Notes under the pieces: generated by a model
The model's database searches: none
Seen by the model: the letters and a program-made list of their open reading frames with translations, nothing else
Told to the model about the DNA's origin: nothing
Translations under genes and position numbers: made by a program
Shown: positions 31,438-46,800 of the stretch, in pieces
How positions within the stretch are numbered: the stretch's first letter is position 1
How the letters are laid out: the number at the start of each line of letters is the position of its first letter
DNA from: an uncultured Sneathiellales bacterium
Lineage (GTDB): Bacteria; Pseudomonadota; Alphaproteobacteria; CAYFNG01
NCBI GenBank assembly: GCA_964344385.1
Contig: CAYFNG010000005.1
Location: 23,583 to 87,582, forward strand
Reading direction: 5' to 3'
Length of the DNA stretch: 64,000 bases

Positions 31438-31842
31438 CTATTTCTCGAGGTCGCGAAACTTGCGGGCCAGGTTGAACTCGGCCGAGGTGACGTGGCGTTC
31501 GATGTCGCGCAGGCGCGCTTCCAGGTCCCGGAAGGTGTGGCGTAGCGACGAGAAGGTGCGGTCGGGCGCGGTCGAGACCGAGCGCCAGAAGACCTCTTCC
31601 TCGCCCGAGGCGTAAACCCGGTCGGGGCGCCGGGGGAGGAAGATCACCGCGGCGATATAGGCCAGCACCGCCGGCACGGTGAAGAAGATGCCGCCGGCGA
31701 TCGCCGCCAGGCGCATGGTCCAGGGCGCGACCCCGAAATAGTCGGCAACCCCGGCACAGACGCCGAACAGGATCCCGTTTTCGGTATTGCGGAACAGCCG
31801 GTGCGGGTTGGGCGAACGGAAGCTGTCATATTCCGTCGTCAT
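31438..31842 (-). CDS. pspC: Phage shock protein C
   Basis: PspC domain (RLFRNTENGILFGVCAGVADYFGVAPWTMRLAAI) plus a TM helix. The ATGA start/stop overlap with pspB. Confidence 0.85.
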   Translation of the reverse strand: MTTEYDSFRSPNPHRLFRNTENGILFGVCAGVADYFGVAPWTMRLAAIAGGIFFTVPAVLAYIAAVIFLPRRPDRVYASGEEEVFWRSVSTAPDRTFSSLRHTFRDLEARLRDIERHVTSAEFNLARKFRDLEK

Positions 31843-32069
31843 TGTTGGTTCCTCCATTCGGGGGTTTCGGCGTCCAGGATGGTCTCCAGGGTGGCGATCC
31901 GGTTTTCCATCTTGCGGACGGATTCCCAGATTTCGACCAGCATGCGTTCGTCGTCGGTGGTCAGGCCCTTGGCCGCCTTCCAGCGCGCCAGATAGTGGAA
32001 CACGATCCACAAGGGCGCCACGAACGCCATGAAGATTACCATCGGCACGAAGAAAAACAGCGATCCCAT
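31839..32069 (-). CDS. pspB: Phage shock protein B
   Basis: 76 aa. N-terminal TM, then …LVEIWESVRKMENRIATLETILD, the typical PspB region. Confidence 0.8.
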   Translation of the reverse strand: MGSLFFFVPMVIFMAFVAPLWIVFHYLARWKAAKGLTTDDERMLVEIWESVRKMENRIATLETILDAETPEWRNQQ

Positions 32070-32115
32070 GATCTTACCTTTTCCGTCTACGCGTTCAGGC
32101 CGGCGGGGTTGTTTC

Positions 32116-32140
32116 CAACGGTCATTGGGAATGACCGTTG
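32116..32140 (-). terminator. Intra-operon hairpin between pspA and pspB (11-bp perfect stem CAACGGTCATT/AATGACCGTTG, GGG loop)
   Basis: Perfect inverted repeat in the 188-bp pspA-pspB spacer. No clear U-tract, so a partial terminator or attenuator. Confidence 0.4.
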
Positions 32141-32257
32141 ATCAGTCCCTCAAACGCCGGGCGCATTTCTCCGAAACGCTTGGCTTCCGGCACACAAGCG
32201 CCGACGCACGTTTGTGCTTGCCACCGGGCCATGAGCCACGCTCACTGCCCGATGGAA

Positions 32258-32953
32258 CTACGACTTGGCCGGCTTCTTGGCCGATTTGGCCTTGACTGCC
32301 TTGGCCTTCAGGGCCTCCAACTCGGCCTCGACCTTGGACTCGACCTCCAGGTCACCGAATTCCTCGGCCAGGCTCTTCTTGCGTTCACCGCCCAGATCAT
32401 AAGCCTCGACCTGCCCGTTCACCTCGTCCAGCTTCCTTTCCATATAGTCAAAGCGGTCGATCACGTCATCGACCTTGCGATTGTGCAGTTCGACCCGCAC
32501 TTTCAGCCGGTTGCCGGCGGTCTTGGTCCGCATGGTCATCGCCTTCTGGCGCGACTTGGCATGATCGAGCTTTTCCTGCAGCTTGGCGATATCGTCGCTG
32601 GCCTTGGCCAGGTCTTCGTCGATCCGGGCCATGTCCTCGTCCAACTGGTCGCGGGTTTCGACCAGCTTGGCCTTGGCGACCAGGGCCGCCTTGGCCAGGT
32701 CTTCGCGGTCCTTCTCCAGCGCCAGTTCCGCCTTGCGCTGCCATTCGTCGATCTGGGCGGTCAGCCGCTCCCGCTGGCGTCCCAGTTCCTTGGTCTCGGC
32801 GATGGTGCGGGCGGCGCCCGAGCGGGCCTCAACCAGCGTGTCCTCCATCTCCTGGATCATCAGCCGAACGATCTTTTCCGGATCCTCGGCCTTGTCGAGA
32901 ATGGCGTTGACGTTGGAATTGATGATGTCGGTGAGGCGCGAGAAAATGCTCAT
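32258..32953 (-). CDS. pspA: Phage shock protein A (PspA/IM30 family)
   Basis: MSIFSRLTDIINSNVNAILDKAEDPEKIVRLMIQEMEDTLVEARS…, a canonical PspA coiled-coil protein. Confidence 0.95.
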   Translation of the reverse strand: MSIFSRLTDIINSNVNAILDKAEDPEKIVRLMIQEMEDTLVEARSGAARTIAETKELGRQRERLTAQIDEWQRKAELALEKDREDLAKAALVAKAKLVETRDQLDEDMARIDEDLAKASDDIAKLQEKLDHAKSRQKAMTMRTKTAGNRLKVRVELHNRKVDDVIDRFDYMERKLDEVNGQVEAYDLGGERKKSLAEEFGDLEVESKVEAELEALKAKAVKAKSAKKPAKS

Positions 32954-33177
32954 CTGTCCTGTTCCGTGGTCTTGGCGGCACCGCCCATCGGCGCCGTCAT
33001 TTGGGGTTGGTAACTGAGGTCCGGTGCCACATCCTGGACCCGGCGCAGGTCAGCCAGCCAGACAAAGGCCAGCAGGATCAGGGGCACCGCGATCACGCCG
33101 ACCAGGACTTGGGTGATGGCCCGTGGGTCGATCATCGATCCGGCCCTGCCTGCACCACTGGTCGCGCTCTGCATCTG
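32950..33177 (-). CDS. Small single-TM protein, translationally coupled (ATGA) upstream of pspA
   Basis: ORF ending 4 nt into pspA. One TM helix (ITQVLVGVIAVPLILLAFVWLADL). Lies downstream of the sigma54 promoter. Start uncertain (33177 or 33135). Confidence 0.35.
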   Translation of the reverse strand, partial: QMQSATSGAGRAGSMIDPRAITQVLVGVIAVPLILLAFVWLADLRRVQDVAPDLSYQPQMTAPMGGAAKTTEQDR

Positions 33178-33247
33178 CACCCTCCTGTCGTCGGGACGGT
33201 CCGTCTCTGCGGTTCCGTCGCTTGCCCGATACATAGCAGGGAGCGTG

Positions 33248-33263
33248 CCAATTCGGGCCGGCC
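33248..33263 (-). promoter_or_regulatory. Sigma54 promoter of the psp operon (minus strand TGGCACG-ctcc-cTGCt)
   Basis: The reverse complement of 33248-33263 reads TTGGCACGCTCCCTGCT: perfect -24 and a GC at -12 with correct spacing. Sits in the divergent pspF-pspA intergenic region. Confidence 0.65.
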
Positions 33264-33378
33264 AGATAAGGCATTGAAATTTATGGGTAAAATTCCGGAC
33301 CGATTTTTGACTTCTTGATATAGTGGTGAAAATCGCTAAATAAATGGTGAGAAAAACCTATTAATCGATTTTTTTACC

Positions 33379-34353
33379 ATGGACCTGCCGCAGATCGTCG
33401 GACAATCACCGCCCTGGCTGGAACTGCTGGAGCAGATCAGCCGGGTCGCGCCCCTGGACAAGCCGGTGCTGGTGATCGGCGAACGCGGCACCGGCAAGGA
33501 ACTGATCGCGGCCCGGCTGCATTTCCTGTCGCAGCGTTGGAACGCGCCGTTCGTCAAGTTGAACTGCGCCGCGCTGCCCGAGACATTGCTGGAGACCGAG
33601 CTGTTCGGCCATGAAGCAGGCGCCTTCACCGGCGCCGGCAAGCAGCGCCTGGGCCGTTTCGAACTGGCCGATGGCGGCACATTGTTCCTGGACGAGATCG
33701 CCAACGCCTCGCTGGCGGTCCAGGAGAAGATCCTCAGGGTGATCGAGTATGGCGAGTTCGAGCGGGTGGGCTCCAGCGCCACGCAAAGCGTCGATGTCCG
33801 GGTGATCGGCGCCACCCATGTCGACCTGCCGACGGCGGCGCGGGCCGGCCACTTTCGCGAAGACCTGCTGGATCGGCTGGCCTTCGATGTCGCCACCGTG
33901 CCGCCGTTGAAGGCGCGGGGCGAGGATATCCATTTGCTGGCCCGGCATTTCGGGGCCCGTATGGCGCGCGAGTTGGAACTCGAGAGCTTCGCCGGGTTCG
34001 CGCCTGAGGTCGAAGCCGAACTGGCCGCTTACCGCTGGCCGGGCAATGTCCGCGAGCTTCGCAATGTGGTCGAGCGGGCCGTCTATCGCCAAGCCGACCC
34101 CGAGGCGCCGATCGCGGCCGTCGTCTTCGACCCCTTCGCCTCGCCCTACCGACCGGGGCGGCCGGACCCGGAAGACGCGAAAGAGGCGCCAGAGGAGCCC
34201 TACGACTTCCAGGCCCGGGTCCGCGACCTGGAAACCGATTGGCTGGGCGCCGCCCTGGCCCGCAACCACCACCACCAACGCCGCACCGCCGAATTCCTGG
34301 GCCTGACCTATCACCAGCTGCGCGGCTACATGCGAAAATACGATTTACCTTAA
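33379..34353 (+). CDS. pspF: Psp operon transcriptional activator (sigma54 enhancer-binding protein without a regulatory domain)
   Basis: AAA+ sigma54-interaction domain starts at residue ~5 (VLVIGERGTGKELIAARLH, GAFTGA present, ESFAGFAPE). C-terminal HTH. Divergent from pspA. Confidence 0.9.
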   Translation: MDLPQIVGQSPPWLELLEQISRVAPLDKPVLVIGERGTGKELIAARLHFLSQRWNAPFVKLNCAALPETLLETELFGHEAGAFTGAGKQRLGRFELADGGTLFLDEIANASLAVQEKILRVIEYGEFERVGSSATQSVDVRVIGATHVDLPTAARAGHFREDLLDRLAFDVATVPPLKARGEDIHLLARHFGARMARELELESFAGFAPEVEAELAAYRWPGNVRELRNVVERAVYRQADPEAPIAAVVFDPFASPYRPGRPDPEDAKEAPEEPYDFQARVRDLETDWLGAALARNHHHQRRTAEFLGLTYHQLRGYMRKYDLP

Positions 34354-37966: not shown

Positions 37967-38958
37967 CACAAGGACCCGTGTGCCGGACGGGACGAGCCAT
38001 ACCAAATCTTCGGTCGCTGCCCGAGCTGCCGGTCCCATTTCACCTGTTCCCCGACCACCCTTGGATCAATTGGCCGTTATGCCAATTGGCCGAAGCGGAG
38101 ATGCGGCGGATTATGCCGCCGGCTGGAAACATAACGCGCTGCATGACACGATCACGGCCCGCGCCCTGGTCTCAAGCATGAACCGAATCGTCAGTGGCGC
38201 CGGCAACCAAGGCTACTTTGCCTGGGGCAACGACACCGGCATCCGCGGCGAACCACCTGAGACCGTGCCGCCGCCTTGACTGAACTCGTTTTAGGTGTGT
38301 TTCTTTAATTTTTGTTAATCTATGTCAAAGACGCCGGATCCGCGTTTCCGATAATTGTTAACCATATTCGACGGGCATGGCGTCCCCGAATACTTGGCGG
38401 GGCCAACCCGTTGCACATGGGCATCGTGAGACACGCCGGAAAATCATGGTGATTTGCTAAGTCGCCTTGGTCAATTGTATTTTCTACCGTCTGAATGGGT
38501 GAAATTTGTGATGAATTTGGAACAGTAGCGGAAATTCGGCACACCGGGAGAGATTACATATTGCTTGCAGCTACGTAGTTTGGTTTAGTGAAACTGAGCT
38601 TGAAAAACGTCAGGCCAGAATAGTTAAATATAGTTAACGCACAACTTGCCGTTTATCTTAAATTTTGGCCGGTGTGCAATAAAGGCAGTAGTAGAAACAA
38701 TAAAAACAAGGCTCGACCGGCCCTGCACAGCATCCGAATCGGTTGTTAAGAGGGCGTTTTAGGTTCGCAGCCGGACGGTGACAAAGTCTATTGGTCACTG
38801 CACTTTTGGCGTGAGGCGGCAGGGGACGCTGACAGCAGTCGGGACGGCTCCCGTGGTACCTAACTGGGTCAGAAGGGCAGGATATTGATTACACAAGGCA
38901 TTAGAATCACCGTCACAGTCGGCACCGGCATCCGGGCGCCATTTGCTCCGGGCAACGG

Positions 38959-40185
38959 TTGACCATGGACGCATACACGGATACGACCGGCCGAAGTGAA
39001 AACCCGGCTGGCACCACGCGTGCCCGGCTTCGCCAATTGGGTGTCGATGAACTCTCGGAGTTGATGCTTGAGGTCGTCGGCGACAATATCGACGCCATCG
39101 ACCGGCTGCAGCAAGCGGTGCAGAAACGCGAGGGCGCCCCGGAACCGTCCCCGGTGCAGGAACCGGAAAGCGAGCAGTTCATGGTTGGCAGCAGCCCAGC
39201 CATGCGGCGCGTGTTCGACCGCATCCGACGGTTCGGTGCCACCGACGCGCCGGTTCTGGTATTGGGGGAGAGTGGCACCGGCAAGGAACTGGCCGCCCGG
39301 GCGATCCATGAGCGGTCCCGGCAAGCGAACGCACCCTTCGTTGCCATCAACTGCGCCGGCCTGCCGTCCAGCCTGATCGCATCGGAGTTGTTCGGGCACG
39401 AAAAGGGCGCGTTTACCGGCGCGACCCAGCGGCGCATCGGCCGAATCGAAGCGGCCGCCGGCGGCACCGTGCTGTTGGACGAGATCGGCGACATCCCGAT
39501 AGAACTGCAACCGTATCTTTTGCGATTTCTCGAGGAAAAAACGATCGACCGGGTTGGCGGCACCCATCCGATCGAGGTCGACGTCCGGGTCGTCGCCGCC
39601 ACCAATACCGACCTCAAAGTGGCGATCGAGGAAGGCAGATTCCGCGAAGATTTGTTTTATCGCCTGAACGTCCTGACCCTGGAGCTGCCGGCGCTTCGGG
39701 AACGCAGCGACGATATCTCTTTAATTAGCCGATTTTTTCTTGAGAAATTTGCCCGCGAAATGGGGCGGGAAGACTGCCGGTTTTCCGACAGCGCCATGGC
39801 GGCGATTCGCAGCCATGTCTGGCCGGGCAATGTCCGTGAACTGATCAGCCGGGTTCGCCAAGGCGTGGTGATGAGCGAGGATGGTTGCCTGACCGTCGAG
39901 GACCTTGGCCTGCCGCAGTCCGTGGCACCGATCGAGAGCGTATCGGGCAGCGACGACCTGGACAGCCTGATCGCCCAGGTGGGAACGTCGCACCTGCTTC
40001 CCATCCTCGACCAGGCCCGCTACCAGCTGGAAGGCAAATTACTTCGGCGGGCCCTGGACCAAAACAACGAGAACGTCAAGAAAGCAGCGCAGGATTTGGG
40101 GGTGTCGCGGGTCACCCTGTACCGGCTGATGGAAAAGCACGGAATCCAGCGCACCAAAACCGTTCGGGCAGCCACAACACGATAG
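38959..40185 (+). CDS. Sigma54-dependent transcriptional activator (bEBP) with a short N-terminal domain and Fis-type HTH
   Basis: AAA+ sigma54 domain: Walker [45 protein letters not shown]-terminal [27 protein letters not shown]. Preceded by a 680-bp AT-rich non-coding region. Confidence 0.9.
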
Positions 40186-40484
40186 AAAGGCCGAAGCCCA
40201 ATCACAGGATGGGATCAATCCAGGAGACCCCAAACATATCCGAGATCAGTTGCACCGCCCGAACGTAAGCCGCGAATAAGGTTGCGGATCGGGATTCGAA
40301 ACGCGAAACTACGCGCCTCTACGCGTAGCTTGCGCTTTCGTATGTTGATCCGGTTGTTGCAGGTGTCGGGCTCGCCTGCAGGGGACATTTGACCGGACCC
40401 GGTTTCCGTATTTCGGTCATGGTCAGAATCCACAGCAATTCTCGATCAAGGCGGGAGACAGCCGCCGTAAATAAGGAGGCGAAA

Positions 40485-41777
40485 TTGAAGCTCAGTCGAG
40501 GGAATGGATGCACGGTGGCGGGCGCCGCCTTGGTCCTGGCGGCAACGGCCGCCATTCCACCTGGAAAAGCCGGCGACCTTTCCAACAGCCAGTTGGAATT
40601 GGACCGGCTGCGCCAGGAAATTGCCGCCGAACGCCAGCAACTGGCCGATCAGCAACAGGCGCTGGAGCGACAGTACGAGGCGCTGCAGAATCAACGTGAC
40701 CGACTCGAAGCGCTGGAAGCCCAACTTGATGGCGTCGGTGGTCCGCGGATTGAACGGGCCGGCTATCGGGTGCCGTCCACGACACGGGATCGCATGCGGG
40801 ACGGCGGCAGGCGGACGCAGGTGCAGACCACACCGCAGGCCGGCGAAGCGCCGTCCGAAGAGCGGCCCCGGGTCCAGGCGCTGGTGGAATCCGGCGGCGT
40901 GTTGCTGCCCCAGGGTAATTTCGTCCTGGAACCGTCGTTCGAATATGTGCGAAGCGACGTCAACCGGGCGGAGATCGTCGGCTTCACGGTGCTGCCCGGC
41001 ATTGTCGTCGGCAACATTTCCGTGGTCGAGGCCAACCGTAACACCTATGTCGCTGCTTTGACCGGCCGGTACGGCGTCACCGACCGGCTGGAGATCGAGG
41101 CCAAGGTACCCTATGTGATGCGCGATGATAGCACGACGACCCGTGAGATCGGGCAGGGCGCATCGGCAGACGTTGTCACCAGTGCCGACGGCAACGATGT
41201 CGGCGACATCGAAGCCGCGATCCACTACCAGCTGAATCAGCCTTCCGCCGGCAAGCCCTATTTCGTCGGCAATCTGCGTGTCAAATCCCGCACCGGCACC
41301 GACCCGTTCGAGGTGCCGCGCGACGCGACCACCAATGCCGAACTTGAGTTGCCAACCGGCACCGGTTTTTGGGCAATCGAACCAAGCGTGACCGCCATCC
41401 TGCCGTCGGACCCGGCGGTGCTTTACGGCAATCTCAGCTATCTGTGGAACATGGAGCGCAACATCGGCGGCCAGTTCGGCAAGATCGACCCCGGCGATGC
41501 CATTGGCCTGAATATGGGTTTGGGTATCGGGTTGAACGAAGACCTGTCCTTGAGCCTTGGGTACGATCACAAAGTGGTCGGCAAAACCACGCAGAACGGC
41601 CAACGCTTGACCGGATCGGACACCCTGCATGTCGGCAAGATGCTGTTGGGCAGCACCTATCGGATGTCGGATTCCACGTCGCTGAACCTGTCCTTCGGTA
41701 TCGGCGTCACCGACGATGCCCCGGACTTCGATTTTGTCGTGCGCTGGCCGATCACGTTCGGCGATCCGGACGACTAG
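40485..41777 (+). CDS. Outer-membrane protein with N-terminal coiled coil and C-terminal beta-barrel (FapF-like architecture)
   Basis: Probable TTG start 5 nt after AAGGAGG. Signal peptide (AGAALVLAATAA). Heptad coiled coil QLELDRLRQEIAAERQQLADQQQALERQYEALQNQRDRLEALEAQL. Pro/Gly linker. ~290 aa of alternating beta strands ending …FVVRWPITF. Confidence 0.7.
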   Translation: MKLSRGNGCTVAGAALVLAATAAIPPGKAGDLSNSQLELDRLRQEIAAERQQLADQQQALERQYEALQNQRDRLEALEAQLDGVGGPRIERAGYRVPSTTRDRMRDGGRRTQVQTTPQAGEAPSEERPRVQALVESGGVLLPQGNFVLEPSFEYVRSDVNRAEIVGFTVLPGIVVGNISVVEANRNTYVAALTGRYGVTDRLEIEAKVPYVMRDDSTTTREIGQGASADVVTSADGNDVGDIEAAIHYQLNQPSAGKPYFVGNLRVKSRTGTDPFEVPRDATTNAELELPTGTGFWAIEPSVTAILPSDPAVLYGNLSYLWNMERNIGGQFGKIDPGDAIGLNMGLGIGLNEDLSLSLGYDHKVVGKTTQNGQRLTGSDTLHVGKMLLGSTYRMSDSTSLNLSFGIGVTDDAPDFDFVVRWPITFGDPDD

Positions 41778-42010
41778 GATCGCGCCGGCCAGCCTGGGGA
41801 AAGGGGTCGGCCCATTCCCATCGGCCGGAGGAGGATTCTCCTGGGTTGGCTCAGGTGAAGTGCAAGGAAGGGGCTGCCACCAGGCAGCCCCTTTTCTCAC
41901 CGATCTTCAGGGTGACCCGCGGGCCGCATCGCAATTCGACGGCGGCGGTTGCCGAGGGATAGGCTGCCGTCGTCGAACGGGTCGCCGGGACCGGCAAGAA
42001 CGGCGGACAT

Positions 42011-42568
42011 TCAGAAACCAAGCGTCAGTTGGTAGCTCAGATTGTTGATCGTGGTGGCCAACCGGGAACTGATCACCGCGGTATTGAAGGTATCGACGGT
42101 GATCTTGCTGATGTTCTGAATATTTACATTGTCCCGAGTGTTCTGGACCAAGGTCAGGACACCGCTGAAGTCGTCAAAACTGACTGCCGAGTTTCCGTCG
42201 CCCACCTGGGTCACTTGGGTGACGCCATGGTCGGTGATTTCCACGCCCGGCGGCGGCGTGCCACGGGTCAGGTCTTCGGACGTGAAACTGTAACGGACCC
42301 GGTCTTCGCCGTTGATCCGCCTGAGGATCTCGACGCCGAAACGGAAACGGAAGCCGCCGCGGGTGAAGCCGCCGCGCATATTGTCCAGTTCCTGGTCGCC
42401 GACCTTGGCCATCCCGGCGAAGGGATTGTCGCTCGATGCCAAAGCGGCAGCGGCCGGATTGCCGACTGCGGAGAAACCCAACAGGAGCAGCGCGACAACC
42501 AGGCCCGCCAGTCCGTTGGTCGATAGTTTGTTCCAGCTTGTCATTGTCATTATCCCCCTCCCAGCCAA
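42011..42568 (-). CDS. Secreted curlin-repeat protein (minor amyloid subunit, FapE/CsgB-like role)
   Basis: Signal peptide. Canonical curlin motif TQVTQVGDGNSAVSF (Q-x-G-x-G-N-x-A). Gln/Asn/Thr-rich C-terminus ending in F. Confidence 0.65.
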   Translation of the reverse strand: MAGRGIMTMTSWNKLSTNGLAGLVVALLLLGFSAVGNPAAAALASSDNPFAGMAKVGDQELDNMRGGFTRGGFRFRFGVEILRRINGEDRVRYSFTSEDLTRGTPPPGVEITDHGVTQVTQVGDGNSAVSFDDFSGVLTLVQNTRDNVNIQNISKITVDTFNTAVISSRLATTINNLSYQLTLGF

Positions 42569-42572
42569 ACGT

Positions 42573-43268
42573 CTAGAAGTCGCCGGTGCCCGGCAGCAAC
42601 ATGGTGAATGTCGCCAGGCCCTGACGGCTAAGTGCGGAACCGAATGGTGCCTTCTGGCGAACCAGCCAGTCCTCTTTCTGGTTGAAATGGGTCTTGGCCA
42701 GCGGAATATTCTGGGTTACGACGAACAGGATGCCGTTCCACATCGCTTCGAATTCAGCCCGGTTATAGGTCTTGGTGCCCAAGGCAGGGTCACCGACCAG
42801 GATTTCATCGTCGCTCAAACCCTTGACGACGACGAAGTGACGGTAGCCGCGAGTGGTGATCAGGGTAATCGCGGGAATGCCCACCTCCAGCAGCTTGTCC
42901 AACGGTGCCCGGAAACCGTCCGACTGGATATTGCGGCGGTTCAGGTACTGTTTCATATCCAGAAGCGAGAACCCTTCCTTGCGGATTTTCGTCTGGTCGC
43001 CGGTTTGGTACATATCCTTGAAGACGGCCTGTTCGGTGACCGGGCTGTCATAGTGATGCGACAGCAAGGTCGCGATCGCCGCCGAGCCGCAACTGAAATC
43101 ATAGGCCTGCTTCACCACGTTGCGAAACCGCGCTTCCTTAAGGCTGACGATCGGCAGCGAGAAATCCCCGCCGACCCCAAACACCGGAAGTGACGCGGCA
43201 CCCGCGTCCCGGCCTTGCAGGCCGAAAAGCAGGAAACCCACCAATATCACGTTGAGGAACGGTCGCAT
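42573..43268 (-). CDS. Periplasmic peptidase C39-like cysteine protease (FapD-like)
   Basis: Signal peptide. Catalytic Cys in FSCGSAAIATLLSHHY, catalytic His in GYRHFVVVKG, and a downstream Asp (LVGDPALG). No ABC-transporter domain. Confidence 0.85.
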   Translation of the reverse strand: MRPFLNVILVGFLLFGLQGRDAGAASLPVFGVGGDFSLPIVSLKEARFRNVVKQAYDFSCGSAAIATLLSHHYDSPVTEQAVFKDMYQTGDQTKIRKEGFSLLDMKQYLNRRNIQSDGFRAPLDKLLEVGIPAITLITTRGYRHFVVVKGLSDDEILVGDPALGTKTYNRAEFEAMWNGILFVVTQNIPLAKTHFNQKEDWLVRQKAPFGSALSRQGLATFTMLLPGTGDF

Positions 43269-43326
43269 CTTTACCTCTCCGGGGTGATCGACCGGGACGG
43301 TTTGGCCGTCCCGGCCTCCAGCCTCG

Positions 43327-43692
43327 TTAGTGGTGGTTGATGGTCACGATCGTCGCGGTTTGAATGACGACGTTGTTGCCCGAGTTCTGGATCACCGTGG
43401 CAATGCCCGAGGCGCCGGAAAACGCGGCATCGACAATGGTGTTGGAACGTGTGGATCCATTGTCGATTGCCGTATTGTCGTGGTGATCGCTGTCGAACAT
43501 GTGATCGAAATCGAAATCGTCCGAGCCACCGCGAACGGTGGCCAGATCGCTCAAGGCCACCTTCTGTCCGGCACCGACCAGGGCATCCAATCCCGATTCG
43601 CTGGACAACTCGCCGCCAAAGGCTGCGCCGCCAAACCCCATGACTGCCAACAGAACGAACGGTCCCATTCGGGTTATGTAGGTCGTTCTCAT
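43327..43692 (-). CDS. Small secreted curlin-repeat protein (nucleator-like, CsgB/FapB analogue)
   Basis: Signal peptide, then a single repeat …SGASGIATVIQNSGNNVVIQTATIV… resembling the repeat core of the adjacent giant protein. Confidence 0.6.
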   Translation of the reverse strand: MRTTYITRMGPFVLLAVMGFGGAAFGGELSSESGLDALVGAGQKVALSDLATVRGGSDDFDFDHMFDSDHHDNTAIDNGSTRSNTIVDAAFSGASGIATVIQNSGNNVVIQTATIVTINHH

Positions 43693-43736
43693 CGCATCCT
43701 CGCTTCCAACTCAGCTTCGCGCTGGGTTAGGAAAAG

Positions 43737-43768
43737 GCGGCTGGCGGAGGTGTGGTTCCGCCAGCCGC
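43737..43768 (-). terminator. Intra-operon hairpin (12-bp perfect stem GCGGCTGGCGGA/TCCGCCAGCCGC) right after the giant repeat-protein gene, followed by CUUUUCC
   Basis: Located in the 85-bp gap between the major-subunit gene stop (43778) and the next gene. Typical differential-expression attenuator of fimbrial or amyloid operons. Confidence 0.55.
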
Positions 43769-43777
43769 GTCGGGGTA

Positions 43778-45757
43778 TCAGTAGTTGGCAACAACGCTGA
43801 TTGCCGACTGGATGGCGTTGTTGTTCCCGTTGTTTTGCTGGACGACCATCACACCCGCGGCACCCATGAAGGAGCCCGAGACCGTGTTCAGGAAGCCCGG
43901 CGCACCGACCGTCGGCTCGACGATCGACGTGTTCCCGGAAACCGTAGCGCCCAGTGCGGCCATCGAACTTGCCGGCCCGAACCCGAGGCCGCCGCCGCCG
44001 CTGTCATCGACGATGACCGCATTGGCCGAACCCATGACGTTGTTGTCGCCATTGTTCTGCTGCAGGGTCATGATGCCCGCGGCACCGTTGAACGCACCGC
44101 CTGACACACTGTTGGTGCGATCGACGAATTCGGTCGCGATCGCCCAGTTCTCGGTCACTTCAGCGTTGCCATAAGCGGCGTTCGATGCCCGGTTGGCGGT
44201 ATGGTCAGCGCTGCCGAGATTGGCAACCACCGCGTTGGCCGCCTGGATGACGTTTTGGCTGCCATTATTCTGCTGCACCGTCAGCACCCCGGCGGCATTG
44301 CCGAAGGAATTGGTCACGGTGTTGCCGCGGTTGGAGGCCCAGTCGCGGGTTTCAACGCCCGACACCATGCCTTCATTCGATGCCGTGGACCAGTTGACCA
44401 CATCCGTGTTCTCGTGGCTGCCCACATTGGCGACCACCGCGGTGGCGGCGCCCATCATGTTGTTGTCGCCATTGTTCTGCTGGACCGTGGCGATGCCTTC
44501 ATAGCCGTTGAACGACGGGTTGATCAGGTTGCTGCGATCCAGGTCGTCGCCAGCAGCCGACATCTCGGTCGACATCGTCGTGCCTTCGATGCTGCCATAG
44601 TTACTGGCCGACTGGGTCCGAACCCGTTCAAAATCGCCGTCGATAATGCCGGTCGTATCGATATTGGCATTCACCGCCGTCGCACCGGCCATCACGTTGT
44701 TGCTGCCGTTGTTCTGCTGCACGGTGGCGATGCCGGCGGCGCCATTGAACGAATTGGTCACCGCGTTGTCGCGGTCGCCCCAGGCTTCCTGCCGAACGTC
44801 GAGTCCCCGCAGAAGGCCCCGGTTGCCGGCCGAAGTGTCGGCATCCTGGTCCACCGTGCTGGGTGCCGGAAGGTTGGCGTTGCCCAGATTGCCGACCACA
44901 CCGGTCGCCGCCGACAGGACATTGCCGTCGCCATTGTTCTGTTGAACCGTGGCTACACCGCTATAGCCGTCGAACGAGCTGTCGATGGTGTTGTCACGTG
45001 ACTGGCTGCGGTCGACGATGGCCTGATTCCCCACCGAACCACCGGCTGAAACCGACTGCCCCACTCGTCCGGCACCCATGTTCATGAACACCGCCGTGGC
45101 CGCCGACATCGCATTGCCGTTGCCGTTGTTCTGCTGCACCGTGGCGACACCGCCCGCGTTGTTGAACGACGGGTTGATCAGGTTGCTGCGGGCGCTTTCC
45201 TCATCGACCAGGAAACGGCTGTCGTCGCCGCGCTGGGCTGAGGTGTTGCCTTCGGCGCTGACCGACTGGCTGGCGTTGCCGCGGCCGCCGGTTCCGGTGT
45301 GGACCGCCGTGGCGGCACCGATTTCGTTGTGGTCGCCGTTGTTCTGCTGAACGGTGGCCACACCGAAATAGTCTTCGAAGCTGTTGAGGATTTCATTGTC
45401 GCGGGTGCCGCCCACATTGACCGTCTCGTTGTCAAATGTGTTCGAATATACGGCCGCGCCGCCGCCAATATTCTGGTTGTTGGCGATATTGGCGTGGGCC
45501 GCCGTGGCCGCGCCAATCGAGTTGTTGCTGCCGTTGTTCTGCTGCGCGTGGGTGATCCCGGCCGCGCCGTTATAGGCACCATTGTTTATGGTATTCAACC
45601 GCGTGCTGCCGTAGTCGGCGGCATAGTTGCCGGAAACGGTTTCGTCTTCGGCACCGACAGAAGCATCGGCGATCGGTTCATCGGCCCAAGCCTGCGTCGC
45701 AGTCCCAACCGTCAATGCGATGGCCGAGGCACCCATTAAAAGGAGACTTTTCCTCAT
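43778..45757 (-). CDS. Giant secreted curlin-repeat protein (660 aa; 9 tandem ~70-aa repeats with core SF-G-AGxATVQQNNG-x-N-x-AATAV). Putative major amyloid subunit
   Basis: ATG 45757 after AGGAGA. Signal peptide MRKSLLLMGASAIALTVGTATQAWA. Nine QQNNG(D/S/N)xN cores. Ser/Asn/Gly/Ala/Thr-rich low-complexity sequence ending in Y. Confidence 0.85.
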   Translation of the reverse strand: MRKSLLLMGASAIALTVGTATQAWADEPIADASVGAEDETVSGNYAADYGSTRLNTINNGAYNGAAGITHAQQNNGSNNSIGAATAAHANIANNQNIGGGAAVYSNTFDNETVNVGGTRDNEILNSFEDYFGVATVQQNNGDHNEIGAATAVHTGTGGRGNASQSVSAEGNTSAQRGDDSRFLVDEESARSNLINPSFNNAGGVATVQQNNGNGNAMSAATAVFMNMGAGRVGQSVSAGGSVGNQAIVDRSQSRDNTIDSSFDGYSGVATVQQNNGDGNVLSAATGVVGNLGNANLPAPSTVDQDADTSAGNRGLLRGLDVRQEAWGDRDNAVTNSFNGAAGIATVQQNNGSNNVMAGATAVNANIDTTGIIDGDFERVRTQSASNYGSIEGTTMSTEMSAAGDDLDRSNLINPSFNGYEGIATVQQNNGDNNMMGAATAVVANVGSHENTDVVNWSTASNEGMVSGVETRDWASNRGNTVTNSFGNAAGVLTVQQNNGSQNVIQAANAVVANLGSADHTANRASNAAYGNAEVTENWAIATEFVDRTNSVSGGAFNGAAGIMTLQQNNGDNNVMGSANAVIVDDSGGGGLGFGPASSMAALGATVSGNTSIVEPTVGAPGFLNTVSGSFMGAAGVMVVQQNNGNNNAIQSAISVVANY

Positions 45758-45902
45758 CGTGTTTCTCCTAGTGACCTTAACGTTTGTCAACTGGGCGTCT
45801 CCTCGGCTGGAGGGTCGGCCCCCGAGAGCGTCGACACTCGCCCCTATCGCACCTGGTTTCAGCGGATCGGGCGCATGTGTAGCGGCGCTCGCCCACCTAC
45901 CT

Positions 45903-45918
45903 AGCAAAGCTTATGCCA
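45903..45918 (-). promoter_or_regulatory. Sigma54 promoter (minus strand TGGCAT-aagct-TTGCT) for the curlin-repeat operon
   Basis: Exact -24/-12 spacing (GG and GC 10 nt apart). ~135 nt upstream of ATG 45757, in an AT-rich leader. A sigma54 activator gene is 6 kb away in the same cluster. Confidence 0.7.
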
Positions 45919-46233
45919 TTTGGTCTATTTTTGATAAGTAATTGTTTTTATTTATGTTTATTGCGCCTGGAATCAACGCAGCAAGATATATGTAAATGTC
46001 TTGTAACTAATGGTTAAGGCTACCGAGCCGGATATTTACCTAAAATTAGCTATAAACGGACGTTTTCTGCGAACGATTCGCAATTAGGCGGGGTTGACAG
46101 TGTTACAGCAACGTTACACTCAAGGGTGAGCCCCCGCTTTCCCGGTATCGATCTGTTAACCATGCCGACAATCGGCACAAAAAGGCCGTCGCGCGGGTTC
46201 TGCGCGACGGCAGGAAAACCGGAAGTCTGGTGT

Positions 46234-46572
46234 TTATTGGCGGCCCGAAATCGAACTGGAAATCTGATTCGATCCGATATTCCGCGGCAATGTCTGACCA
46301 GCCGGTTGCGGCGGCTTGAATTCGTCCCACAGGATGACGGCCACACCCGTCTCGTTGCCGGAAGCGCCCGGCGCACCGAGGTTTTCGCCTGCCCGCTGGC
46401 GCGAGAGCTCGTCCATGGCAACCGCTTGGCCACCAAGCGGGGAGATCTGGGCGCTGGCCAAGTGCAATAGTCGATCTTCGGCCGCGACCGGGCCGGAAAG
46501 CATGGCCAGACCAGACAGCGCCAGCACTGCTGTCGCGGCCTTGAGGCAGGGTCGAAGAATTCGCTTCACCAT
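46234..46572 (-). CDS. Small secreted protein (112 aa, signal peptide), candidate accessory component of the amyloid locus
   Basis: Signal peptide LALSGLAMLSGPVAA. Preceded by its own sigma54-type promoter. Confidence 0.5.
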   Translation of the reverse strand: MVKRILRPCLKAATAVLALSGLAMLSGPVAAEDRLLHLASAQISPLGGQAVAMDELSRQRAGENLGAPGASGNETGVAVILWDEFKPPQPAGQTLPRNIGSNQISSSISGRQ

Positions 46573-46637
46573 AGCGAACGTCCCACATTCGTTCCTTTAC
46601 ATCGGCCGCCGGGATCGCCGCGACCACCCCATATTAT

Positions 46638-46653
46638 GGCAAACTTCATGCCA
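46638..46653 (-). promoter_or_regulatory. Second sigma54 promoter (minus strand TGGCAT-gaagt-TTGCC), upstream of the 112-aa secreted protein gene
   Basis: Same TGGCAT -24 element and exact spacing as the promoter at 45903-45918. ~55 nt upstream of ATG 46572. Confidence 0.6.
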
Positions 46654-46800
46654 AATTTTAACCCATACGAGAGATTTGCGCCCTTTCGCAGTTTCCGGCC
46701 GATTCAAGCAGGCCGGACCCGATCCGGAGTGCTCGGGCAGCGTAACCCGCGGTTTACACCCACCGATCGCACCGTCGGCCGGGCCGTTTGGTTCGTTCGG

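Follow-up and report, generated by a model that had tools for sequence, protein, structure and literature searches.

A probable divergent Fap-type fibre biogenesis cluster with nine-repeat and single-repeat subunits and sigma54-type promoters

The window, i.e., the whole 64-kb stretch of DNA that was analysed, carries a gene cluster in which genes for a sigma54 activator and an outer-membrane protein lie on the plus strand, while the minus strand encodes a large repeat protein, three small secreted proteins and a C39 cysteine peptidase. All coordinates of open reading frames in a first-pass annotation of this DNA proved correct and agree with genes called independently on the source contig of 441 kb. 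The four-gene operon described there on the opposite strand is present; a fifth minus-strand gene (46572-46234), coding for a 112-aa protein, had been overlooked, as had two sigma54 promoters and a hairpin at 43768-43737. The region is AT-rich only to a mild degree, with a GC content of 0.58-0.63 in the cluster versus about 0.65 elsewhere; a value of 0.53 is reached in the ORF-poor 38-39 kb stretch. Its description as an "AT-rich accessory stretch" thus needs to be toned down.

The gene at 38959..40185 (plus strand) encodes a sigma54 enhancer-binding protein of 408 aa (Pfam Sigma54_activat, 4.6e-69; AAA_lid_14; HTH_8). It combines an AAA+ sigma54-interaction domain containing GAFTGA (aa 75-241, 39181-39681) with a Fis-type HTH domain (aa 356-393, 40024-40137). 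The stretch ahead of the AAA+ domain is only about 74 aa long, so the protein lacks a full receiver or a VpsR-like sensor domain. Its AAA+ and HTH domains share 45-56% identity with activators adjoining related clusters compared with 39% for the PspF-like activator of the window. Two -24/-12 promoters of the sigma54 type reside on the minus strand: TGGCATaagctTTGCT (45903..45918) is located 146 nt upstream of the major subunit ATG, with an AT-rich stretch before it, and TGGCATgaagtTTGCC (46638..46653) precedes the 112-aa gene by 66 nt. These are the only two matches to TGGCAY-N5-TTGCH on either strand of the 64 kb, where 0.13 would be expected, and each precedes one of the two transcription units. 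Among 61 related loci, 22 likewise have a strict site upstream of the operon and on its strand, compared with an expectation of about 0.09 per locus. The activator and the two consensus promoters support the earlier proposal that the cluster is under sigma54 control, which would extend to both units. A terminator scan furthermore revealed a strong GC-rich hairpin with a 12 bp stem and a subsequent T-run (43737..43768, minus strand) 10 nt past the stop codon of the major subunit gene, between this gene and that for the following small subunit. It probably serves as an attenuating terminator by which the major subunit is kept at a high ratio to the accessory proteins.

The outer-membrane protein of 430 aa (40485..41777, plus strand; TTG start with AAGGAGG as ribosome-binding site ahead) consists of a signal peptide, a long coiled-coil helix (aa 33-84, 40581-40736), a low-confidence linker (aa 86-145) and a beta-barrel (aa 146-425, 40920-41759) with a conserved PTG motif at aa 290 (41352-41360). 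The FapF-like layout noticed in the first-pass annotation was borne out by the NCBIfam FapF model (E=1.3e-52, 179 bits, below the equivalog cut-off of 700) and by FapF from the PDB (5O65, E=1.4e-35), which covers the whole barrel. In a Foldseek search with the AF2 model (pLDDT 83), the top 18 matches were all FapF chains with a target TM of 0.80. Judged by sequence and predicted fold, the protein is a true FapF homologue. Similarly, the 231-aa protein encoded at 42573..43268 (minus strand) is a stand-alone, putatively periplasmic C39 cysteine peptidase with a signal peptide (Pfam Peptidase_C39, 4.6e-21) that resembles FapD (NCBIfam FapD, 4.2e-46, 157 bits with a cut-off of 330; NCBIfam FilB, 1.4e-36) and is 40% identical to Aeromonas FapD. 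Its catalytic triad had correctly been reported as intact: C60 (43089-43091), H144 (42837-42839) and D160 (42789-42791) are present along with Q54 (43107-43109), and 90 of 91 relatives have the same residues.

The three small secreted proteins differ in their relations. A minor subunit of 179 aa (42011..42550, minus strand), previously taken for a second curlin-repeat protein, turned out to be FapE-like. It occupies the corresponding position, finds its best match among Aeromonas Fap proteins in FapE (blastp, 5e-4) and has the motif EL..MRG(G/R/K)(F/Y) in common with canonical FapE proteins from four genera. An HMM built from 79 positional homologues picks FapE ORFs only among 236 ORFs of canonical loci (E=1e-5, 3e-5, 6e-3), and the family comprises 290 representative clusters at E<=1e-3. 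The signal peptide is followed by the leader ELDNMRGG (aa 54-61, 42368-42391), and the predicted cut after G61 would yield a mature part of 118 aa with Q/N-rich segments. The second protein (121 aa, 43327..43692, minus strand) also bears a signal peptide and a leader, ending in DLATVRGG (aa 49-56, 43525-43548), ahead of a 65-aa mature part with one 39-aa repeat (aa 81-119, 43336-43452). It matches a repeat HMM made from the 659-aa major protein, and in 77 of 87 related loci a homologue is encoded directly ahead of the C39 gene; nearly all of these homologues have L...RG(G/R/..) about 65 aa before the C-terminus. By content this protein is FapB-like, although its gene is placed after that for the major subunit. 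The third, the 112-aa protein (46234..46572, minus strand) in the 'fapA position', belongs to a family found in six related loci; it features a signal peptide, ELSRQRAG (aa 55-62, 46387-46410) and an invariant (V/I)ILWDE (aa 79-84, 46321-46338). In addition to its own sigma54 promoter, the gene has a terminator at 46211-46185, and the protein aligns with a 117-aa ORF that precedes fapB in the canonical operon of Amphritea (the BLASTP match is weak, E=0.017). Note that the NCBIfam models for FapA, FapB, FapC and FapE gave no match at E<=1 with the window's own subunits: the FapA model did not recognize the 112-aa protein, nor the FapE model the 179-aa protein, and the 121-aa protein found no match in NCBIfam or Pfam.

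The canonical double-glycine leader (L-7, h-4, R-3, G-2, G-1) is present in 67 of 83 FapE-like proteins, where R-G-G is accompanied by L at -7, L/M/V at -4, V/L/I at -12, W/L at -15 and F at +1, and in the single-repeat protein of the window. R-G-G leaders with these positions represent the double-glycine pattern recognized by C39 peptidases. This new element on two small subunits predicts both the substrate of FapD and the cleavage site. In the literature, FapE has been suspected of being the FapD substrate, as it lacks its N-terminal ~70 residues in vivo (PMC5557850, PMC6173800). C39 peptidases and double-glycine leaders are, on the other hand, characteristic of the export of class II bacteriocins and quorum peptides, the peptidase matches bacteriocin ABC exporter peptidase domains with E=1e-13, and the next-best structural match of the outer-membrane protein after the FapF chains is COG4313 (4rl8). 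The locus would then mature and export bacteriocin- or microcin-like peptides, with the 121-aa and 179-aa proteins as small secreted toxins or signals whose leaders are cut by C39, and with a COG4313-type channel in the outer membrane. We give this explanation hardly any credence, because genes for an ABC transporter, membrane fusion or immunity are absent from the cluster, the peptidase, like FapD, stands alone and has a signal peptide, and the substrates carry Sec signal peptides as well as the Q/N-rich repeat that is also found in the large subunit. Moreover, the outer-membrane protein has the FapF-type coiled coil and is far closer to FapF (E=5e-22) than to COG4313 (E=4e-13).

The major subunit is a FapC-like protein of 659 aa (43778..45757, minus strand; N 13%, G 13%, A 14.5%, Q only 4.5%) with a signal peptide ending in AWA and nine imperfect repeats. 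The 39-aa cores are spaced 64-79 aa apart and are encoded, from first to ninth, at 45488-45604, 45293-45409, 45080-45196, 44888-45004, 44663-44779, 44426-44542, 44219-44335, 44006-44122 and 43784-43900. Their consensus, R-x-N-x-I-x-x-S-F-n-G-a-x-G-i-a-T-V-Q-Q-N-N-G-x-x-N-x-m-x-a-A-t-A-V, aligns in register with the imperfect repeat of FapB/C at 11 of 39 identical positions ('.rRnN.Id.SFnGA.GVaTVQQNNGDNNaMGAATAVvAn' versus 'TNtASIgGnAF.GASGNIGVNVAAGdNNvQaNsLALSaa' for FapC). Compared with the published minimal Fap repeat G-X4-N-X3-G-X6-N, both glycines are kept, the first asparagine is replaced by glutamine and the last is lost. The hhalign score was 14.5 (P=0.0025) and exceeded all 100 column-shuffle controls (mean 9.1, maximum 13.8). 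This support is modest, and the two glycines had served as anchors for extracting both sets of repeats. Sequence-to-profile HMMER searches with a FapC-repeat HMM performed no better than shuffled controls because the composition is biased. Pfam FapBC (PF27129), which matches all 120 listed FapC homologues, recognizes 24 of the 107 proteins related to the repeat protein; for the window's own 659-aa protein there is no precomputed match to it; NCBIfam FapB was the sole family match in five of ten relatives tested. Taken together, the repeat appears to be related to the FapB/C amyloid core repeat.

The first-pass annotation had instead envisaged a hybrid in which curli-type, CsgA/CsgB-like subunits were captured by a FapF/FapD export apparatus. 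Its Fap-type export half stands, given the homology to FapF and FapD, as does the absence of CsgG, CsgE and CsgF, for which tblastn detected no homologue within the window. The claim of CsgA-like subunits fell. Pfam Curlin_rpt gave no match at E<=1 on any cluster protein, and the repeat genes gave no tblastn match to CsgA or CsgB of E. coli. The whole set contains the curlin signature Q.G.GN.A a single time, as QVGDGNSA in the FapE homologue; canonical FapE has Q-x-x-G-D-x-N at this place. The signature is missing from all nine repeats of the 659-aa protein, whose pattern is G-x-x-N since the second glycine is not conserved. With its 39-aa core of the Fap type, the repeat unit differs from the 19-23-aa curlin repeat; relatives match Pfam FapBC and NCBIfam FapB and never curlin, and structure-based identity amounts to 22% with FapC versus 9-12% with CsgA. 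We therefore regard a curli-type origin of the subunits as very unlikely and read the cluster as a divergent Fap system rather than an uncharacterised mixture.

The label 'functional amyloid' could still be wrong if FapD/E/F-type machinery exported a non-amyloid surface protein, with the large subunit forming a monomeric beta-solenoid adhesin or a surface-layer-like fibre anchored via the small subunits. This is unlikely, though less so than a curli origin, in view of the relationship to the FapB/C core repeat and the multi-repeat FapC proteins with 4-16 repeats already known from Fap systems (PMC3792158). End-to-end stacking of solenoids has likewise been predicted and observed for CsgA and FapC monomers. 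The cluster is likely to be a complete yet divergent Fap-type fibre biogenesis system from a lineage that is sister to the canonical fapABCDEF operon, comprising an ILWDE protein, a nine-repeat "FapC", a one-repeat "FapB", FapD, FapE, a divergent FapF and the activator. In such a system, the activator would act on the two -24/-12 promoters and drive transcription of the ILWDE gene and of the operon for major subunit, single-repeat subunit, C39 peptidase and FapE-like protein, with the hairpin holding the accessory genes at a lower level. All six products have Sec-type signal peptides and would reach the periplasm, and the FapF-like protein would provide an outer-membrane channel with a 12-stranded-type barrel and an N-terminal periplasmic coiled coil. 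The FapD-like peptidase may remove the leaders of the FapE-like and single-repeat proteins after G61 and G56, respectively, as C39 peptidases are known to do, and thereby license secretion. The matured small subunits could anchor or nucleate at the surface, where the nine-repeat subunit is predicted to stack its repeats into a cross-beta solenoid fibre with FapC-like amyloid behaviour.

A search of genome neighbourhoods showed that the same module recurs in about 80 sampled genomes of Alpha-, Beta- and Gammaproteobacteria and Desulfobacterota. Of about 87 related loci, essentially all have genes for the small subunit, the C39 peptidase and the FapE-like protein; 78 have a gene for the FapF-like protein and 48 one for the activator. 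Wherever the available sequence suffices to see it, a large G/S/T/N-rich protein that ends in one repeat is encoded upstream. Published surveys recorded such loci only as fapD-fapF pairs. What had appeared as unexplained pairs of peptidase and pore genes can now be read as a widespread lineage of Fap relatives.

The gene order parallels fapC-B-D-E...F, as had been noted before, and differs from that of canonical Fap systems. Deviant systems with single-repeat FapB, many-repeat FapC and detached fapF have been described (PMC3792158). An adjacent sigma54 activator is also found in canonical Fap operons of Aeromonas, Shewanella, Luteimonas and Amphritea, and the sigma54 linkage is therefore not special to the divergent cluster; in P. 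fluorescens, RpoN is a positive regulator of fap (PMC8202526). The repeat numbers of nine and one contrast with the three repeats that are near-universal in canonical FapB and FapC (PMC12822426).

The six genes that a first-pass annotation had placed in this cluster were all recovered at the same coordinates and agree with a separate set of gene calls made for the metagenomic source contig of 441 kb, and its list is extended by a fifth gene on the minus strand. The plus strand encodes a sigma54 enhancer-binding protein of 408 amino acids (38959-40185; Sigma54_activat 4.6e-69, AAA_lid_14, HTH_8, GAFTGA loop) and a FapF-like outer-membrane protein of 430 amino acids (40485-41777), the TTG start of which is preceded by AAGGAGG. 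On the minus strand lie the newly added gene for a secreted protein of 112 amino acids (46572-46234), the gene for the major subunit, a repeat protein of 659 amino acids (45757-43778), and those for a 121-residue protein consisting of a leader and one repeat (43692-43327), a C39 peptidase of 231 residues (43268-42573) and a FapE-like protein of 179 residues (42550-42011). As read from the sequences, every cluster product appears to open with a positively charged and then a hydrophobic segment of the Sec signal peptide type.

The outer-membrane protein had been taken as FapF-type from its layout, and profile, sequence and structure comparisons agree. It matches the NCBIfam FapF model with 1.3e-52, under the equivalog cut-off, and the FapF structure 5O65 in a phmmer search with 1.4e-35 over the whole barrel (residues 160-457), and it carries the PTG motif. 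In the AlphaFold2 model (pLDDT 83), residues 33-84 are predicted to form one long helix at the N-terminal end and residues 146-425 the barrel, with a linker of low confidence between them. When this model was compared with the PDB by Foldseek, as had been proposed for FapF 5O65 in the first-pass annotation, the top 18 matches were all FapF chains (E=5e-22, target TM 0.80, 28% identity), with a COG4313 channel next. The FapF-like proteins of Variovorax, Aquabacterium and Cupriavidus, including those of two loci retrieved for comparison (L004 and L007), are named 'acetate kinase' in RefSeq, evidently an annotation error that has propagated across Betaproteobacteria.

The peptidase, which had been described as a stand-alone FapD-like enzyme with an intact catalytic triad, proved to be just that. 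It matches Pfam Peptidase_C39 (4.6e-21) and NCBIfam FapD (4.2e-46, again under the equivalog cut-off), is 40% identical to FapD of Aeromonas, has an N-terminal hydrophobic signal sequence and is devoid of ABC domains. Residues Q54, C60, H144 and D160 have all been retained by 90 of 91 relatives. Since the scores for both proteins fall below the NCBI equivalog cut-offs, we regard them as relatives of Pseudomonas FapF and FapD and not as orthologues.

The nature of the repeat subunits called for reassessment, as they had been read as CsgA-like proteins bearing the curlin signature and exported by Fap-type machinery. The 659-aa protein contains nine imperfect repeats with a spacing of 64-79 aa and a core of about 39 aa (R-x-N-x-I-x-x-S-F-n-G-a-x-G-i-a-T-V-Q-Q-N-N-G-x-x-N-...-A-x-A-V). 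Pfam Curlin_rpt (PF07012; S-X5-Q-X-G-X-G-N-X-A-X3-Q) did not match any cluster protein at E≤1. The curlin core Q-x-G-x-G-N-x-A occurs neither in the 659-aa nor in the 121-aa protein and only once in the 179-aa FapE-like protein; it is absent from all nine repeats, across which its second glycine is not conserved. When E. coli CsgA, CsgB, CsgC, CsgE, CsgF and CsgG were used as tblastn queries over the 64-kb window, nothing relevant was found: the searches with CsgA and CsgB were negative, and those with CsgG, CsgE and CsgF gave no match better than E=0.01 in the 64 kb and none within the cluster. The reported lack of CsgG, CsgE and CsgF was therefore confirmed for the window, while the curlin signature and the CsgA-like subunits had to be abandoned. 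A hybrid in which curli subunits travel on Fap machinery is contradicted by the Curlin_rpt search, the CsgA/CsgB tblastn and the absence of the motif from the nine repeats.

For comparison with Fap, we used canonical operons, i.e., those of the fapABCDEF type, from Aeromonas caviae, Shewanella fidelis, Luteimonas yindakuii and Amphritea opalescens, the proteins of which match the NCBIfam FapB, FapC, FapD, FapE and FapF models. A consensus drawn from 296 canonical FapC repeats has the same register as one drawn from 923 window-family repeats, and the two are identical at 11 of 39 positions (F11, G13, A14, G16, V20, G25, D26, N27, N28, A35 and A38). In a profile-profile alignment in this register the score was 14.5 (P=0.0025), above each of 100 column shuffles (mean 9.1, sd 1.9, max 13.8); this support is modest, both repeat sets being anchored on two glycines. 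Independently of this alignment, precomputed annotations assign Pfam FapBC (PF27129) to all 120 listed FapC homologues and to 24 of 107 relatives of the 659-aa protein, but not to the repeat protein of the window itself. NCBIfam FapB was the only family match in five of ten relatives of the repeat protein (E=3e-4 to 4.5e-3). The HMM searches suggested in the first-pass annotation thus gave a divided result, as FapF and FapD were matched, Curlin_rpt was not, and the NCBIfam models FapA, FapB, FapC and FapE found nothing among the small proteins of the window, with FapB and FapC likewise negative on its subunits. The window repeat does not match the minimal Fap pattern X15-G-X4-N-X3-G-X6-N-X7. 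An HMM built from the 296 FapC repeats performed no better on the repeat protein and its 107 relatives than on shuffled sequences, a HMMER search rendered uninformative by compositional bias (106 bits).

The AlphaFold2 model of the 659-aa protein is a confident all-beta solenoid (pLDDT 84, pTM 0.89). This predicted fold supports a functional-amyloid-like solenoid, and it does not discriminate between curli and Fap, either of which would be compatible with it. According to the main rival explanation, the same machinery would export a solenoid adhesin that does not form amyloid. That reading shares the FapF- and FapD-like proteins with ours and departs from it over the subunits, the repeats of which lie in register with those of FapC. 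On the evidence from the sequences, the best explanation for the cluster is a divergent Fap-type fibre system that would represent a sister lineage to fapABCDEF; it is referred to as variant in the following.

Directly 3' of the peptidase gene lies the gene for the 179-aa protein. The NCBIfam FapE model finds nothing in this protein at E≤1. Among the Fap proteins of Aeromonas, its best match is FapE (blastp 5e-4 in a six-sequence database), and it shares EL-x-x-M-R-G-(G/R/K)-(F/Y) with the canonical FapE of four genera. In addition, an HMM derived from 79 homologues defined by position picks only the FapE ORFs from 236 ORFs of canonical loci. Judged by position, motif and family HMM, the 179-aa protein is probably FapE-like.

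C39 peptidases recognize double-glycine leaders, which have G-G, or G-A or G-S, at -2/-1 and hydrophobic residues at -4, -7, -12 and -15, counted back from the cut. Two window proteins fit this pattern by sequence. Behind its signal peptide, the FapE-like protein reads ...M(-15)AKV(-12)GDQE(-8)L(-7)DNM(-4)R(-3)G(-2)G(-1)/F, the slash marking the predicted cut, and the 121-aa protein reads ...V(-12)ALSD(-8)L(-7)ATV(-4)RGG/S, from which a mature product of 65 aa, essentially one repeat, is predicted. RGG is present in 67 of 83 FapE-like proteins of related loci. For 69 of them, a GG site can be read together with its complete upstream context; in this set Arg at -3 hardly varies (67 proteins), L occupies -7 in 60 and F occupies +1 in 56, while L, M or V is favoured at -4, V, L or I at -12 and W or L at -15. 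Nearly all single-repeat proteins of related loci carry L-x-x-x-R-G-(G/R/...) about 65 residues before the C-terminus. Canonical FapE retains EL..MRG, with the second glycine replaced by R or K. The motif, its conservation and its position lead us to infer that the FapE-like protein, and in the window the single-repeat protein as well, are substrates of the peptidase and would be cut after G-G. It has been known since 2017 that the proteolytic activity of FapD, which depends on a catalytic cysteine, is essential for secretion (PMC5557850), and the literature searched (PMC5557850, PMC6173800, PMC12822426) does not establish which substrate it cuts, or where. Fap proteins have been described as lacking canonical C39 sites, and FapE alone is missing its first ~70 residues in vivo (PMC5557850, PMC6173800). 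A 2025 review goes no further than 'is thought to process' for the action of FapD on FapE and FapF.

The additional 112-aa protein belongs to a family of small secreted proteins defined by an invariant (V/I)ILWDE preceded by L-x-x-x-R-(G/A). In the window the motif is encoded at 46321-46338; another member is found at 5961-6314 of L095, a locus retrieved for comparison. The family occurs upstream of the subunit genes not only in variant clusters but also in the canonical fap operons of Amphritea and Aidingimonas, and in Amphritea it is the ORF preceding fapB that is similar to the window protein. We dropped an identification as FapA in favour of 'ILWDE protein in fapA position', since the NCBIfam FapA model does not match the protein. 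From its position and motif, it may represent an alternative to FapA.

One genome per species was scanned with the peptidase alignment. The scan yielded at least 594 FapD-like genes, a number in which canonical and variant genes are mixed and which was not taken for the size of the variant lineage, and the best 80 of these loci, with 45-62% identity, were kept. The FapE-like proteins fall into 290 representative clusters. The search of other genomes for the same gene set, again an idea of the first-pass annotation, showed that the module recurs: the triplet of single-repeat protein, C39 peptidase and FapE-like protein is present in essentially all kept loci, a FapF-like gene, collinear or divergent, in 78 and a sigma54 activator in 48. 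Wherever upstream sequence is available, a large protein rich in G, S, T, N, Q and A and ending in a repeat (e.g., ...QSAAGIMVxNQNSGxxSLVQQSVNVQANL) is encoded there. The exception is an Alphaproteobacterial subset, comprising the window, L013, L022, L027 and the Indioceanicola locus L008, whose large proteins contain 7-21 repeats. Quite unlike these, the large subunit of most Beta- and Gammaproteobacterial loci (e.g., L004, 8028-9416) has 300-900 aa of Gly/Ser/Thr/Asn low-complexity sequence with a single C-terminal repeat, which fits G-X4-N-X3-G. L008 resides on the Indioceanicola profundi plasmid NZ_CP030127.1 (3715-10915) and encodes a large subunit with 21 repeats along with a FapF-like protein; an ORF screen of 21 kb revealed neither a C39 peptidase nor a FapE-like gene.

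Host organisms are Alpha-, Beta- and Gammaproteobacteria and Desulfobacterota; in addition, two short MAG contigs bear the labels Acidobacteriota and Chloroflexota. In the 2013 survey, Fap was found in Beta-, Gamma- and Deltaproteobacteria only (PMC3792158). Median identity of the FapD-like proteins is 46.5% between variant members and 41-47% between canonical ones, as opposed to 32.8% between the two, so that by sequence these proteins appear to split into a variant and a canonical group; judged likewise, the FapD-like and FapF-like proteins of the variant lineage form a group apart from the canonical ones. In Aidingimonas halophila DSM 19219 (L057, 7497-16480), a variant cluster resides ~3 kb from a canonical fap operon (FapB 3.6e-27, FapC 1.6e-44, FapD 6.2e-85, FapE 2.9e-29), and this coexistence side by side identifies the two as paralogous systems. 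The variant cluster consists of genes for the small subunit, the FapD-like and the FapE-like protein, followed by those for the FapF-like protein and the activator on the opposite strand, and its canonical neighbour is arranged as ILWDE-protein/fapB/fapC/fapD/fapE. The FapF-like gene and the activator gene, located between the two systems, might serve both.

A 2018 review of Fap remarks on co-localised fapD-fapF homologues (PMC6173800). Its table (Rouse et al. 2018, PMC6173800) lists Cupriavidus metallidurans CH34 (NC_007974.2, 69226-69924 and 71186-72658; L007) as having FapD and FapF only, and likewise Thioalkalivibrio K90mix, the locus of which belongs to the variant lineage. The 'orphan' fapD-fapF pairs of 2018 are thus variant-lineage loci whose subunit genes had gone unrecognised.

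Control by sigma54, proposed along with the cluster, is supported at the sequence level by the GAFTGA activator and by two consensus promoters predicted upstream of the fibre genes. The strict pattern TGGCAY-N5-TTGCH occurs exactly twice in the 64 kb, both strands taken together, compared with 0.13 expected. Both sites (TGGCAT-N5-TTGCT and TGGCAT-N5-TTGCC) are on the minus strand. One (45918-45903) follows an AT-rich stretch and precedes the major-subunit ATG by 146 nt; the other (46653-46638) precedes the gene for the 112-aa protein by 66 nt. Of 61 related loci, 22 have a strict site on the strand of the operon, at a distance of 0.3-5 kb before the peptidase gene (~0.09 expected per locus). 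No site with at least 9 of 11 matching positions was found upstream of the FapF-like gene, and neither the regions upstream of the promoters nor the 38-39 kb stretch contain inverted repeats of 12 nt or more as candidate activator sites. GC hairpins followed by T-runs, also on the minus strand, are located directly after the 112-aa gene (46211-46185) and directly after the major-subunit gene (43768-43737); going by its position, the latter probably attenuates read-through into the genes for the small subunit, the peptidase and the FapE-like protein.

The window activator is 45-56% identical to other cluster-linked activators, including one beside the canonical Amphritea operon, and 39% identical to a PspF-like activator 5 kb away. 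A sigma54 activator also adjoins canonical Fap operons of genera other than Pseudomonas, and RpoN activates fap in P. fluorescens (PMC8202526), which makes the predicted sigma54 control a shared trait of Fap and not a peculiarity of this cluster. Only ~74 residues precede the AAA+ domain of the window activator (38959-39180); its cluster-linked relatives have ~140 at this position, with weak VpsR-like matches. By analogy with PspF, it may be controlled by a partner protein, or it may be constitutively active. Gene calls reveal a complete phage-shock module 5 kb upstream of the cluster (31438-34353), with PspC (31438-31842), PspB (31839-32069), PspA (32258-32953) and a 74-aa ORF (32950-33174) on the minus strand and the PspF-like sigma54 activator of 324 aa (33379-34353) on the plus strand. 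The window thus contains two sensor-less sigma54 activators less than 6 kb apart. Upstream of the cluster activator gene lie ~900 ORF-poor nucleotides (38060-38958; GC 0.53 compared with a window mean of ~0.65) with a single gene call of 66 aa (38079-38279). An Rfam search of the whole 64-kb window, this stretch included, gave no match.

Taken together, the original observation holds in large part: the Fap machinery and the sigma54 control stand and the curlin subunits do not. In the strict sense the cluster is not a member of canonical Fap either, because it deviates in the number of repeats and in the arrangement of the operon, has no FapA match and is missed by the curated models for the subunits. 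A new kind of machine is not established by these results. We tentatively propose, with slightly less than even confidence in the whole, that the cluster exemplifies a large unrecognised sister lineage of Fap in which a periplasmic C39 peptidase cuts bona fide double-glycine leaders located behind Sec signals on the FapE-like and single-repeat subunits. If this is true, the lineage provides the long-sought FapD substrate and site, after L-x-x-h-R-G-G (RG(R/K) in canonical FapE), leader removal would be the step that licenses secretion through FapF, and fibre subunits would span a range with a single repeat at the C-terminus of a long low-complexity chain at one end and a stack of more than 20 repeats at the other. 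Fap is, to our knowledge, one of only two well-understood Gram-negative systems for functional-amyloid export, and the double-glycine leader on the FapE-like subunit, and on the single-repeat subunit of the window, makes the FapD substrate question directly testable. Loci once counted as stray fapD-fapF pairs would be complete fibre systems with subunits that the curated Fap models miss; RefSeq names proteins of the variant lineage 'hypothetical', 'transporter' or even 'acetate kinase'. Variant loci occur in Alpha-, Beta- and Gammaproteobacteria and in Desulfobacterota, so that Fap-type systems, which are here extended to many unannotated loci, including some in Alphaproteobacteria, are probably underestimated in surveys of functional amyloids.

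Among known systems, Acinetobacter Fil resembles the cluster in possessing a stand-alone C39 peptidase and a FapF-related barrel. The window proteins match FilB (1.4e-36) and FilC (4e-13), but these scores are well under those for FapD and FapF, and matches to NCBIfam models of the FilA, FilD, FilE and FilF type are lacking among the window proteins. Identity with Fil, a 'putative pilus system' in NCBIfam whose function is, as far as we know, poorly characterised, was rejected on account of the much weaker scores. The predicted leaders resemble those processed by peptidase-containing ABC transporters in the G-G pair at -2/-1, in the hydrophobic character of positions -4, -7, -12 and -15 and in E or D at -8. 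In contrast to these, they follow a Sec signal peptide, the peptidase is periplasmic and stands alone, and Arg at -3 is outside the classical consensus. A bacteriocin export locus was rejected because genes for an ABC transporter, a fusion protein and immunity are all missing from the cluster. Curli differ in repeat length and export route; the cluster proteins have no Curlin_rpt match, and the tblastn searches of the 64 kb revealed no CsgG, CsgE or CsgF.

Within Fap itself, deviant systems of Vibrio and Acidithiobacillus, in which FapB has 1-2 and FapC 4-16 repeats, fapA is missing and fapF detached, were described in the 2013 survey (Dueholm et al. 2013, PMC3792158). They share the single-repeat FapB, many-repeat FapC, missing fapA and detached fapF with the window, and the survey does not discuss a double-glycine leader or a sigma54 activator. 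The window FapF-like protein is 41% identical to proteins from Vibrio/Photobacterium replicons and 28% identical to Aeromonas FapF. The 'orphan' fapD-fapF pairs (PMC6173800) turn out to belong to a complete module, which adds genes for a FapE-like, a single-repeat and a large repeat-bearing subunit and often one for a sigma54 activator. In Pseudomonas, FapC forms the amyloid fibres, FapF is a trimeric channel, FapD a C39 peptidase and FapA a chaperone. The window cluster differs from this system in several respects. Its minus-strand genes are in the order (ILWDE)-C-B-D-E, and those for F and the activator run divergently on the plus strand. The major subunit of the window has nine repeats and the small one has a single repeat, as opposed to the 3 + 3 that are near-universal in canonical operons. 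The window proteins are missed by the curated FapA, FapB, FapC and FapE models, and the FapE-like and single-repeat proteins carry RGG in place of the RG(R/K) of canonical FapE. Both systems share a FapF homologue composed of coiled coil, linker and barrel, the barrels being 28% identical along their entire length, a homologous periplasmic FapD with identical catalytic residues and a putative FapE-like gene directly 3' of fapD, Q/N/G-rich repeats of ~39 aa in major and minor subunits, those of the window aligning in register with the FapB/FapC repeat, predicted Sec dependence of all components and the link to sigma54/RpoN.
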